Shown here: piece by piece, positions 8,781 to 11,279 of the stretch
Layout: every line of letters begins with the position of its first letter
Position numbering within the stretch: the stretch's first letter is position 1
Assembly: GCA_019057635.1 (NCBI GenBank)
Contig: DXJL01000022.1
Location: 1 to 11,443 of the forward strand
Direction of reading: 5' to 3'
Origin: Candidatus Heimdallarchaeota archaeon
GTDB lineage: Archaea; Asgardarchaeota; Heimdallarchaeia; Hodarchaeales; Hodarchaeaceae
DNA length: 11,443 bases
Position numbers and translations under genes: made by a program
Notes under the pieces: model-generated
The model's input: the letters and a program-made list of their open reading frames with translations, nothing else
What the model was told of the DNA's origin: nothing
Databases searched by the model: none

Positions 8781-10550
8781 TTGAATCGATCTCTTAGAAG
8801 TGGTATACCCTTGAAAACCTCAAATAACATACCAGATAAACCAGAAAAGGATGAATTTGGACTTGATTTTATCCGAAAGATAATTGTTGAGGATATAAGA
8901 ACTAATAAAAATGAAGGTCGAGTCCATACGCGTTTTCCTCCTGAACCAAATGGTTGGATGCACATTGGACACGCTATGGCTATCTATTTAAGCTATAGTG
9001 TCGCTCAAGAATATAATGGCCTTTTTAACTTAAGGTTTGACGATACCGATCCTTCCAAAGAAAGTATGGACTATGTAGAGGCAATTAAAGAGGATGTTCA
9101 ATGGTTAGGGGCTGAATGGGAGGATCGATTATACTTCGCTTCAGATTATTTTGAGAAACTGTATGAATTTGCAGTTGCACTGATTAAGGCTGGTAAAGCG
9201 TTCATCTGTGATTTGAGTGTTGAGGAGATAAGAGAACAAAGAGGAACTCTAACAGAACCAGGAGTAAACAGTCCTTACCGAAATAGATCAGCTGAAGAAA
9301 ACTTTGATTTATTTAAGCGGATGCGTGAAGGTGAATTTGAGGATGGTTCGAAAGTCCTACGCGCTAAAATTGATATGACTTCTCCAAATCTTCTAATGCG
9401 TGATCCGATCATGTACCGGATCAAAAGGGTAAGTCATTATAGAACTGGAACAGAGTGGATAATTTACCCTAGTTATGATTTTACTCATGGGGAATCTGAT
9501 GCAATTGAGGGAATAACTCATTCTCTCTGTTCACTAGAGTTTGAAACCCATAGGCCTTTATATGACTGGTTTATAGATGAATTGCTAGCATTAGGAACAT
9601 TAAAACATAAACCTCGGCAAATTGAATTTTCTCGCTTGAATGTAACATATACTATAACGAGTAAACGTAGATTACTAGAATTAGTTAAGGGAGAATATGT
9701 TTCTGGATGGGATGATCCACGAATGCCAACAATAGCTGGGATGCGGAAACGAGGATTCCCAGCAAGTGCGATTAGAACTTTTCTTGGTAGAGTGGGTGTT
9801 ACAAAGAGAGAAAAAAATATCGATGTTGGTTTATTGGAAGCTTGCGTGCGTGATGAATTAGATAAGGAAGCTAATCGTGTATTGGCTGTCTTAAATCCCT
9901 TACGAGTTGTTATTACGAACTATCCAGAAGACCAAGTAGAACATCTAGAAATACCAAATCATCCAAAAGATGAATCTAGAGGTACCCGTAAAGTACCGTT
10001 TTCACGAGTGCTTTATATAGAGCAAGAAGATTTTATGGAAGACCCTCCTAAAAAATTCTATCGCTTAACGCCGGGTAGAGAGGTTCGATTACGGAATGCA
10101 TACTTTATTACATGTACTGATGTCAAGAAAGATGAGTCTGGGAAAATACTTGAAGTTCATTGTACATATGATCCCAACACAAGAGGAGGATCATCTCCAG
10201 ATGGGAGAAAAGTAAAAGCAACCATACATTGGCTTTCCCGAGATCATGCATTGAAAGCGGAAATTCGCTTATACGATCGATTATTCAATCGAAAAGATCC
10301 CTCAGGTTTACCTGATTATAATTCTGATTCGTTGAAATCGATAACTGGATATGTAGAACCCAGTTTAAAAGAAGCTAAACCAGCTACCCACTATCAATTT
10401 GAACGAGTAGGATATTTCTTTACTGATCCAGAGGAATTTACCAAGAAAAAACTAGTTATCAACCGGACGATTACATTACGTGATACTTGGGCAAGAATCA
10501 AGAAACAACTTCCTCAACCAAAGAAAAAGAAGCAGAAAAAAAAGAAATAA
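8781..10550 (+). CDS. glnS: Glutamine--tRNA ligase (GlnRS), bacterial type
   Basis: [12 protein letters not shown]2-[108 protein letters not shown] and NRTITLRD are all colinear with E. coli GlnS. The start is uncertain (TTG 8781 or TTG 8811). Confidence 0.96.
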
Positions 10551-10587
10551 TTCTTCTTGATCGATTCGGATTAAAAACTAAAGGTAA

Positions 10588-10986
10588 TCAGTTGTTAGGA
10601 GTTATTTCCAAATACACACGTTCTGTTTCTTTTCTCCAAAATGCTAATTTCGTGAAAGCGATGAGAATTTTCACAAGGAATGTTTTTGCTCCTTCCATTG
10701 TTTCAAAGGCAAATTGCTCCTCTTCTTTAGCTAGCACTCGTGCCTTTACTTCAATTTCAGGGCCTTTTAGCTTGCCACGTATTGTACATGGGGCAATTTT
10801 TGCATCCGAATTATTCCTTAAACGTTTTATTTTGTAGGAATTCTTTCTGGTTGATACATATAAGCGATCATTATTCCTCACAAATTCTACTGGAGTAGCT
10901 ACACCTTTTCCACTTTTATAGTACGTTGTTAAACTGATCGTTCGATGTCCTGCTAAATAATCAAATGGGTGTGTATTTTGATTCAT
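10588..10986 (-). CDS. PPOX-class (pyridoxamine 5'-phosphate oxidase-like) probable F420-dependent oxidoreductase, Rv2061-like
   Basis: ISLTTYYKSGKGVATPVEF...LYVST...SYKIKRLRNNSDAKIAPCTIRGKLKG matches the family pattern LTT-x2-K-x-G-x2-V-x-TPV...K-x-KR-x-RNN...APC-x2-RG. Confidence 0.85.
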   Translation of the reverse strand: MNQNTHPFDYLAGHRTISLTTYYKSGKGVATPVEFVRNNDRLYVSTRKNSYKIKRLRNNSDAKIAPCTIRGKLKGPEIEVKARVLAKEEEQFAFETMEGAKTFLVKILIAFTKLAFWRKETERVYLEITPNN

Positions 10987-11091
10987 CTTAATTCAATAGA
11001 ATCATTTTATTGTAAAATTATTAATGAATCGTGTTTGAATTCAGGAATATATCTAGATTTTTTAAGCTCACCATAAATGGGAAAATTAGAA

Positions 11092-11163
11092 CAGCCCCAT
11101 CCAGATTCGAACTGGAGTCTTCAGATTCAGAGCCTGAGGTGCTAACCACTACACTATGGGGCT
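11092..11163 (-). tRNA. tRNA-Gln (anticodon CUG), no intron, CCA not encoded
   Basis: Reverse complement: AGCCCCA TA GTGT AGTGGTTA GCAC C TCAGG CT-CTG-AA TCTGA AGAC TCCAG TTCGAAT CTGGA TGGGGCT G. It folds as a full cloverleaf. Confidence 0.96.
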
Positions 11164-11204
11164 TGACTGTAATTTATATGCATTTAATGTATGTAGAGAA
11201 GAAA

Positions 11205-11279
11205 TGGCAGCCCCGTCCAGATTCGAACTGGAGTCGTGAGGGTCAAAGCCTCATATGATAGCCTCTACACCACGGGGCT
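11205..11279 (-). tRNA. tRNA-Gln (anticodon UUG), no intron, CCA encoded
   Basis: Reverse complement: AGCCCCG TG GTGT AGAGGCTA TCAT A TGAGG CT-TTG-AC CCTCA CGAC TCCAG TTCGAAT CTGGA CGGGGCT G CCA. It folds as a full cloverleaf. Confidence 0.97.

Follow-up and report, generated by a model that had tools for sequence, protein, structure and literature searches.

The window analysed here, an 11,443-bp stretch of DNA, is a complete contig (C166) of a metagenome-assembled genome (MAG; G000, 3.19 Mb in 214 contigs, 36% G+C, 91.6% complete, 3.2% contaminated) from a Heimdallarchaeia archaeon of the order Hodarchaeales. Our subject is its gene for a bacterial-type glutaminyl-tRNA synthetase (GlnRS), glnS, together with the two tRNA-Gln genes beyond the 3' end of glnS. 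The locus comprises the following features:

8781-10550, plus strand: glnS, bacterial-type GlnRS (open reading frame (ORF), TIGR00440, Pfam)
10588-10986, minus strand: gene of the PPOX-class F420-dependent oxidoreductase family (TIGR03666, 107 bits against a cut-off of 84.9; PF01243)
11092-11163, minus strand: tRNA-Gln(CUG), no encoded CCA (ARAGORN; Rfam tRNA 63.8 bits, gathering score 29)
11164-11204, no strand: 41-nt spacer between the tRNA genes (from the coordinates, with the CCA of the UUG gene counted as tRNA)
11205-11279 including CCA, minus strand: tRNA-Gln(UUG), body 11208-11279, CCA 11205-11207 (ARAGORN; Rfam tRNA 56.9 bits)

A first-pass annotation had described a gap of 541 bp between glnS and tRNA-Gln(CUG) with one small gene inside it, followed by tandem tRNAs 41 nt apart that jointly read CAA and CAG. 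ARAGORN, Rfam and the ORF coordinates reproduce each of these points exactly, the small gene being the PPOX-like one and the anticodons CUG and UUG. These are the only two tRNAs with Gln anticodons detected in the whole assembly. Since glnS and both tRNAs lie on opposite strands and converge, a single transcript is impossible, which rules out an operon or co-transcribed synthetase-tRNA unit here. A search of sequencing runs listed no RNA data set for this stretch. The PPOX-like gene is outside the glutamine module; in most relatives the gap between glnS and the tRNAs is only 34-93 bp, too short for a gene.

The glnS product has 589 residues when counted from the TTG at 8781; the true start may lie about 10 codons downstream, since the database copy of the same protein has 579. 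It scores 692.3 bits with TIGR00440, the GlnRS equivalog model (cut-off 425.8), and falls below the cut-offs of the archaeal GluRS models. PF00749, PF03950 and PF20974 outline a class I catalytic domain and two beta-barrel anticodon-binding domains; the HIGH motif aligns, and TSKR stands in line with the MSKR of E. coli (KMSKS type). Against solved structures the protein scores 655-678 bits with P. aeruginosa and E. coli GlnRS and 413-427 bits with the human and yeast enzymes. With these features it is predicted to charge tRNA-Gln with glutamine. Its top NCBIfam model, NF011291 (GlnRS/YqeY fusion, 830 bits), is matched over profile positions 12-574 of 769, so that the public name 'glutamine--tRNA ligase/YqeY domain fusion protein' overstates its content: the name comes from the GlnRS-YqeY fusion of Deinococcus, whereas the archaeal protein has no C-terminal YqeY domain.

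GlnRS scored over cut-off in 25 of 201 sampled Asgard genomes, all within three Heimdallarchaeia families: f1, to which the window's genus belongs (5 of 9, plus the window genome itself), f3 (17 of 22) and f4 (2 of 3). The other 24 Asgard families gave 0 of 166. 'Rare synthetase', as the first-pass annotation had it, thus holds for Asgard archaea overall but not within these three families, where the gene is common. In a closer sample of 41 genomes, the 24 GlnRS carriers were 12 members of the window's genus, 6 of f3 and 6 of f4, with none among the two f2 and three f5 genomes.

Across these 41 genomes, tRNA-Gln genes were positioned with a covariance model built from the linked tRNAs, and glnS with a hidden Markov model. 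In the window's genus, both tRNAs, recognisable by G at discriminator position 73 (G73), lie 34-620 bp past the 3' end of glnS, in convergent orientation, in 11 of the 12 GlnRS-positive genomes, all within about 0.7 kb; the exception is G015, with its tRNAs 117 kb from glnS. The complete, single-contig 4.9-Mb genome G010 holds the linkage as well. Distances from glnS to tRNA-Gln in f3 are 78 bp (G032), 147 bp (G024), 1.2 kb (G036), 4.6 kb (G040), 13.5 kb (G028) and 16.6 kb (G038), and in f4 they are 104 bp (G025 and G033), 0.8 kb (G031), 3.0 kb (G027) and 4.0 kb (G037), with no tRNA-Gln on the short glnS contig of G035. In both families the nearest tRNA-Gln lies downstream of glnS and on its strand. 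Over the three families, a tRNA-Gln lies at most 1.5 kb from glnS in 17 of 24 genomes and at most 5 kb in 20 of 24.

As a bacterial control we used 60 of 80 fetched bacterial glnS loci; a tRNA-Gln lay at most 600 bp from glnS in 3 of the 60 and within the flank of about 6 kb in 5 of the 60. Proximity in bacteria is therefore above chance and far below the archaeal rate. The five bacterial tRNA-Gln genes near glnS are L063:7757-7830, L078:3623-3694, L117:1727-1800, L113:3768-3841 and L110:950-1024, and one such linked locus, from Desulfobacterales, shares the convergent layout. That relatives show the linkage too excludes both a coincidental neighbourhood and an assembly error. The data support a non-random linkage that was inherited together with glnS. 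The first-pass annotation had thought chance unlikely and had pointed to gene order in relatives as the place to look; the expected synteny is indeed present in f1, f3 and f4.

Where the enzyme came from is suggested by its relatives. The nearest homologues of the window GlnRS share 82-86% identity, with many more at 65-71%, under the public labels Candidatus Hodarchaeales, Hodarchaeota, Heimdallarchaeota or Promethearchaeota. A pattern scan over one genome per prokaryotic species found GlnRS 53-65% identical on contigs with bacterial titles (Desulfobacterales, Anaerolineales, Planctomycetota and others); the only other match was a short contig titled Methanomassiliicoccales, and the archaeal kin did not come up. 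Trees of archaeal and bacterial GlnRS sequences, rooted on archaeal GluRS, place both archaeal clades inside the bacterial radiation: that of the window's genus with a Shimodaira-Hasegawa-like approximate likelihood ratio (SH-aLRT) support of 100, and that of f3 plus f4 with 100 in the mixture-model tree (a quick version) and 84 in the LG+G4 tree. This nesting among bacterial GlnRS rules out an origin of the enzyme within Heimdallarchaeia, and on the sequence evidence the GlnRS is bacterial in type. In the free trees f1 stands apart from f3 plus f4; a tree that forces the 24 archaeal sequences together has a log-likelihood 47.8 above that of the quick free tree and is not rejected (approximately unbiased test, p=0.74). 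The composition of glnS matches that of its genome, with a GC content of 0.377 against 0.370±0.024, a codon-usage distance at the 33rd percentile and a tetranucleotide distance at the 22nd. The first-pass annotation had proposed to date the acquisition from such a comparison; since glnS looks like its genome, the acquisition is old and not recent.

The linked tRNAs combine an archaeal body with bacterial marks. The CUG gene has A1:U72, G2:C71, C3:G70, G10, the anticodon loop CUCUGAA (A37, A38) and G73; the UUG gene has the same A1:U72, G2:C71, C3:G70, G10 and G73, with the loop CUUUGAC (A37, C38). G73 together with A37 was found in each of the 24 sequences of this type that were read from the genus, 21 of them adjoining glnS, two in G015 at 117 kb and one at a contig edge in G021. 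The identity set of E. coli GlnRS, as tabulated by Giegé and Eriani (PMC9976931, Table 1), consists of G73, U1-A72, G2-C71, G3-C70, G10, U34, U35, G36, A37 and U38. With this set the window tRNAs share G73, G2:C71, G10, U35, G36 and A37, and their A1:U72 pair is as weak as U1:A72. Among 14 homologues A1:U72 and G2:C71 are invariant (14/14 each) and C3:G70 occurs in 11/14, the others having U:A or A:U. In the same 14, 97.3% of cloverleaf cells are paired, 11 of the 21 pairs have changed on both sides, and the covariation score was matched by 0 of 500 shuffles and collapses when the partners are slid; the cloverleaf, as its pairing pattern indicates, is under selection.

The tRNA-Gln genes that adjoin bacterial glnS have U1:A72 and G3:C70 in a stem UGGGG, against AGCCCCG in the linked tRNAs, and to judge from these stems the two are plainly different lineages. 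Of the canonical archaeal features the window tRNAs have A1:U72; they lack A73, and likewise the G37 of GlnRS-free relatives. The D-loop of the linked set ends in UA rather than CCA, and in several linked copies the D-loop or T-arm is interrupted by an intron of archaeal type. Introns at non-canonical sites (D-loop, T-arm, T-loop) are common in tRNA-Gln genes of the genus, both linked (L030, L036, L046, L148) and unlinked UUG (L185, L187, L188, L154, L146), and ARAGORN mislabels these genes as Ser, Val, Tyr, Ile, Lys, Phe or Pyl.

The genus also holds a second, unlinked set of tRNA-Gln genes, which has the same acceptor stem AGCCCCG but A73 and G37. A73 is present in 17/17 CUG orthologues and 10/10 UUG genes, and G37 in all but six, which have U37. 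The 17 CUG orthologues carry an intron at 37/38, and the 10 UUG genes read are either intronless or interrupted at 37/38 or in the T-loop. Exactly four tRNA-Gln genes, two of each type, are found in the complete genome G010. The identical acceptor stems of the two sets argue for local duplication or concerted evolution rather than import. A canonical A73/G37 set elsewhere in the genome, which the first-pass annotation had thought worth looking for, thus exists in the genus; none with a Gln anticodon was found in the window's own assembly.

Outside the genus, the GlnRS-free families f2 and f5 have A73/G37 in 6/6 tRNA-Gln genes (five genomes). Families f3 and f4 retain A73 with one exception, the G73/G37 CUG gene of genus g8; their glnS-linked UUG gene has A37, and f4 has a second, unlinked UUG gene with G37. 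Among the tRNAs read, A37 is seen only where GlnRS is present, and G73 appears as an additional change, made chiefly in the genus of the window. In f4, one tRNA-Gln(UUG) (L205, G033:C41:228195-228267) combines A37 with U73, the eukaryotic-type discriminator, as a single case. We also came across tRNA-Gln-like genes whose anticodon loop is abnormal, being 6 or 8 nt long with a core of UUUAGG or UUUCGG, and which have A1:U72, A73 and an encoded CCA, at L044:1132-1206(-) in G036, L196 in G040 and G032:C72:6538-6609; in genus g8 such a gene sits between glnS and tRNA-Gln(CUG). In genomes in which no GlnRS was detected, some tRNA-Gln genes of the A73 type have a mismatch at the first pair (A1·G72, A1·C72 or C1·U72), namely L144 (G006), L145/L146 (G013) and L189 (G005). 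An intron-containing 'tRNA-Gln(UUG)' called by ARAGORN in the window genome at G000:C20:58726-58840(+) was read by eye as UGG (Pro) and not counted; it has the anticodon arm CUUGG-UUUGGGA-CCAAG, A1:U72, A73, an insert in the D-region and an Rfam tRNA score of 29.5 bits.

Genes for the indirect route to Gln-tRNA-Gln are present alongside. The window genome has an archaeal GluRS and intact, adjacent genes for GatD (474 bits, cut-off 324) and GatE (334 bits, cut-off 320), and GatD exceeds its cut-off in 36 of the 41 relatives, GlnRS carriers included. In f4, 7 of 8 genomes have a pair of full-length GatD genes that exceed the cut-off, G035 having a single one, for example G025:C81:30778-31992 and G025:C74:9123-10328, and in G033 and G037 one GatD copy shares the glnS contig, 22-51 kb away.

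The archaeal enzymes themselves have diverged in several places. At the column of E. coli Asp235, a residue that we take to read G3:C70 and G2:C71 in the minor groove and to be a classic site of mischarging mutants, Asp is found in 0 of 24 archaeal GlnRS: f1 has T in 11 and S in one, f3 V in five and I in one, f4 V in five and N in one, the window enzyme having Thr. The counts among 78 bacterial GlnRS are D 51, N 16 and V 9. Loss of the Asp fits tRNAs with C3:G70, a match of sequence features that is only suggestive. The window enzyme ends in a lysine-rich stretch (KKKKQKKKK, within window positions 10490-10547), and basic C-terminal tails of variable sequence are found in GlnRS of the genus and are absent from the enzymes of f3 and f4. 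These instead carry an N-terminal extension of about 85 residues that the genus enzymes lack (for example L031:1483-3450(-) and L041:1144-3102(+)). It matched no Pfam family and is homologous to the N-terminal domain of the archaeal GluRS of the same class (30-40% identity; blastp E down to 3e-11 in a small database), so these proteins appear to be an archaeal domain fused onto a bacterial-type body.

We consider it probable that the locus is a conserved module of Hodarchaeales for direct glutamine charging, in which a GlnRS of bacterial origin and two co-adapted tRNA-Gln work beside the GluRS/GatDE route. A Heimdallarchaeia host would have acquired the bacterial enzyme, and a resident archaeal tRNA-Gln would have been duplicated to give the linked pair. 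The duplicates would then have been retuned to the foreign enzyme by changing A73 to G73 and G37 to A37, and the enzyme may have adapted in return by losing the Asp that reads G3:C70 in E. coli. GlnRS would now charge the G73/A37 tRNAs directly with glutamine, while the ancestral indirect route would run in parallel, with archaeal GluRS and GatD/GatE acting on A73/G37 tRNA-Gln. We infer from sequence who charges what, and how far the two routes are insulated from one another. The linkage would then mark a co-inherited pair, either as a relic of the site where glnS landed or because selection kept together two parts that work well only with each other. Insertion of glnS beside a pre-existing tRNA-Gln locus, which the first-pass annotation had raised, is possible. 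Its suggestion of an orthogonal pair draws strength from the G73/A37 marks, set against the unlinked A73/G37 genes and GatDE; orthogonality itself we infer.

Several observations weigh against this reading, and most of them would be expected if GlnRS and GluRS/GatDE instead shared one pool of tRNAs, with the G73/A37 genes as housekeeping tRNAs for both, the A73/G37 genes as redundant paralogues and the linkage as a relic. The A1:U72 pair, which GatDE reportedly reads (PMC9499178), is kept in all 14 linked tRNAs, so archaeal GluRS might still charge them and GatDE amidate the product. GatDE is intact in the window genome despite the lack of a detected A73 tRNA with a Gln anticodon, which a strict two-channel model leaves unexplained. 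In f3 and f4 GlnRS operates with A73 tRNAs, so G73 is not needed for the enzyme to be retained. G015 has lost the linkage and yet keeps its G73/A37 tRNAs, so that the linkage may be a plain relic, and the convergent genes can have no common regulation. In addition, three of the ten bacterial identity elements (U1:A72, G3:C70 and U38) are missing from the window tRNAs, 27 of the 78 bacterial GlnRS likewise lack Asp at the Asp235 column, and the absences of genes rest on MAGs that are 74-94% complete. A shared pool nevertheless seems to us unlikely, if a serious contender. It does not account for G73 and A37 occurring together in every linked-type tRNA and in 0 of the 27 A73-type genes of the genus, for the confinement of A37 to GlnRS-bearing families, for a linkage that has outlasted, over three families, changes of orientation, the insertion of a gene and the gain of introns, or for an enzyme altered at the position that reads the acceptor stem.

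That glnS and tRNA-Gln arrived jointly from a bacterial donor, already linked, has some appeal, given that a tRNA-Gln does adjoin some bacterial glnS genes near the archaeal clade (at L063 convergently and 95 bp downstream, at L078 240 bp upstream) and that 5 of the 60 control loci carry one within about 6 kb. We regard it as very improbable, because the A1:U72 and C3:G70 of the linked tRNAs belong to an acceptor stem identical to that of the resident A73 tRNA-Gln, against U1:A72 and G3:C70 in bacteria, and several linked copies have introns of archaeal type. Of the origins first proposed for the pair, co-inheritance stands, the linkage being kept with the gene, while co-transfer of the tRNAs from a donor does not agree with their archaeal bodies and resident-type stem. 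A short 11.4-kb contig in a 214-contig MAG, bearing a bacterial-looking GlnRS, could also raise the suspicion of a mis-binned bacterial fragment or a chimeric assembly with a chance neighbourhood. The same arrangement in 10 other genomes of the genus, the single-contig G010 among them, together with the archaeal type of the tRNAs and a glnS composition equal to that of the genome, makes the chance of such an artefact negligible.

If the linked genes do form a direct charging module, its part in decoding may be larger in the subclade of the window (G000, G002, G020, G018, G004 and G005) than in the rest of the genus. The A73 UUG gene was not found in any of these six genomes with the covariance model, which scores it at 58-79 bits in other species, and the A73 CUG orthologue reads UUCUAU (anticodon CUA, U37) in 6/6. 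Since the subclade thus has no detected A73 UUG gene and its A73 CUG gene has become CUA, the module may suffice for glutamine decoding, and from its gene content it appears to carry all CAA/CAG decoding there. The CUA state occurs in 6 of the 17 species of the genus, the orthologous gene being CUG/G37 in the other 11. In the window genome the CUA gene is:

C20:11132-11240, minus strand: tRNA-Gln body with anticodon CUA, A1:U72 and A73, interrupted at 37/38 by a 36-nt intron

Its orthologues are L178, L179, L180, L143 and L189. By eye its bulge-helix-bulge is reasonable, with UUCU/AGAA pairing flanked by AUA bulges, and over the six species the exons are nearly identical whereas the introns have diverged, which argues for function. 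The anticodon change is that of the E. coli supE suppressor. Bacterial GlnRS readily charges amber-anticodon tRNAs, according to PMC9976931.

Genome-wide recoding of TAG as an explanation for the CUA tRNA is rejected by the statistics of stop use and continuation. TAG ends 23% of long ORFs; in-frame continuation of at least 100 codons follows 5.6% of TAG, 4.9% of TAA and 3.5% of TGA; 31 of 33 same-frame ORF pairs split by TAG have a start codon at most 8 codons past the stop, as do the TAA and TGA controls; and TAG makes up 21.8% of the stops of a CUG-type relative, compared with 19.7-25% for CUA-type genomes. Pyrrolysine is ruled out as well, there being no PylS match in the window genome. 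One further reading is that Hodarchaeales have two insulated Gln channels and that in this subclade the ancestral one, superfluous for CAA/CAG, has been re-aimed: its CUG tRNA would have become a conserved CUA tRNA, and GatDE would be retained to load it, giving conditional read-through of UAG as Gln. We think this improbable; if true, it would be a natural codon capture enabled by an acquired orthogonal pair, and in the CUA tRNA archaea would have their equivalent of the supE amber suppressor of E. coli.

Compared with known systems, the enzyme is of the same family and domain layout as in the GlnRS:tRNA-Gln of E. coli and P. aeruginosa (PDB 1gtr/1qtq and 5bnz). It differs from that system in its archaeal host, in tRNAs with A1:U72, C3:G70 and A38 or C38, in the Thr at the Asp235 column, in the lysine-rich tail and in coexisting with GatDE. 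The archaeal indirect route (non-discriminating GluRS plus GatDE on A73/A1:U72 tRNA-Gln) is represented by GluRS, GatD and GatE in the genome and by A73/G37 tRNA-Gln in the genus, whereas the window tRNAs are G73/A37 and stand beside a GlnRS. In Helicobacter pylori, too, a second Glx-family synthetase, GluRS2, is specialised on tRNA-Gln with acceptor-stem-centred recognition, giving two systems per cell, and the portions of PMC9976931 that treat it describe no gene linkage; there the enzyme was duplicated and the tRNA left unchanged, whereas here the enzyme would be foreign and the tRNA duplicated and retuned. Bacterial-type CCA-adding enzymes of Heimdallarchaeia, described as 'bacterialization' in accessible parts of a preprint (bioRxiv 10.64898/2026.05.29.728689), are another bacterial tRNA enzyme in the same class, though a different one; the text at hand contains none of the words 'GlnRS', 'glutamin', 'tRNAGln' or 'discriminator'.

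According to a 2022 review (PMC9499178), GlnRS is missing from all known archaea, and the reason given is tRNA-Gln identity, A73 versus G73: the archaeal tRNA-Gln, with A73 and tuned to GatDE, does not suit the bacterial or eukaryotic enzyme. A 2022 essay (PMC8879553) has GlnRS passing from eukaryotes to archaea and bacteria, with no details given. The accessible text of a 2024 preprint (10.1101/2024.07.04.601786) mentions GlnRS a single time, for its position next to cox genes in Hodarchaeales and Kariarchaeaceae. The abstract of a 2024 preprint calls Hodarchaeales the closest relatives of eukaryotes. A Pfam scan found no cox genes on the window contig; the other products encoded there are an AsnC/MarR-type regulator, an ABC transporter pair, a bPH_2 membrane protein and a triple-PAS protein, with no obvious tie to translation. 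Our literature search, which extended to texts other than subscription journals and supplements, turned up no paper on tRNA linkage, the G73/A37 switch or two tRNA sets in Asgard archaea.

To conclude, an archaeal group, the Heimdallarchaeia and notably the Hodarchaeales, has GlnRS despite the statement of the 2022 review. This finding touches the long-standing question behind the enzyme's supposed absence from archaea and is relevant to the fields of synthetases and of eukaryogenesis alike. The predicted obstacle that A73 poses to GlnRS would here have been resolved beside the gene itself, by duplicated tRNAs bearing G73 and A37, and a 25-year-old hypothesis becomes testable at the bench, since nature supplies four tRNAs and two charging systems for it. 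The locus may also serve as a natural candidate for a mutually orthogonal synthetase/tRNA pair, and it adds a further case to the uptake of bacterial tRNA enzymes by Heimdallarchaeia.

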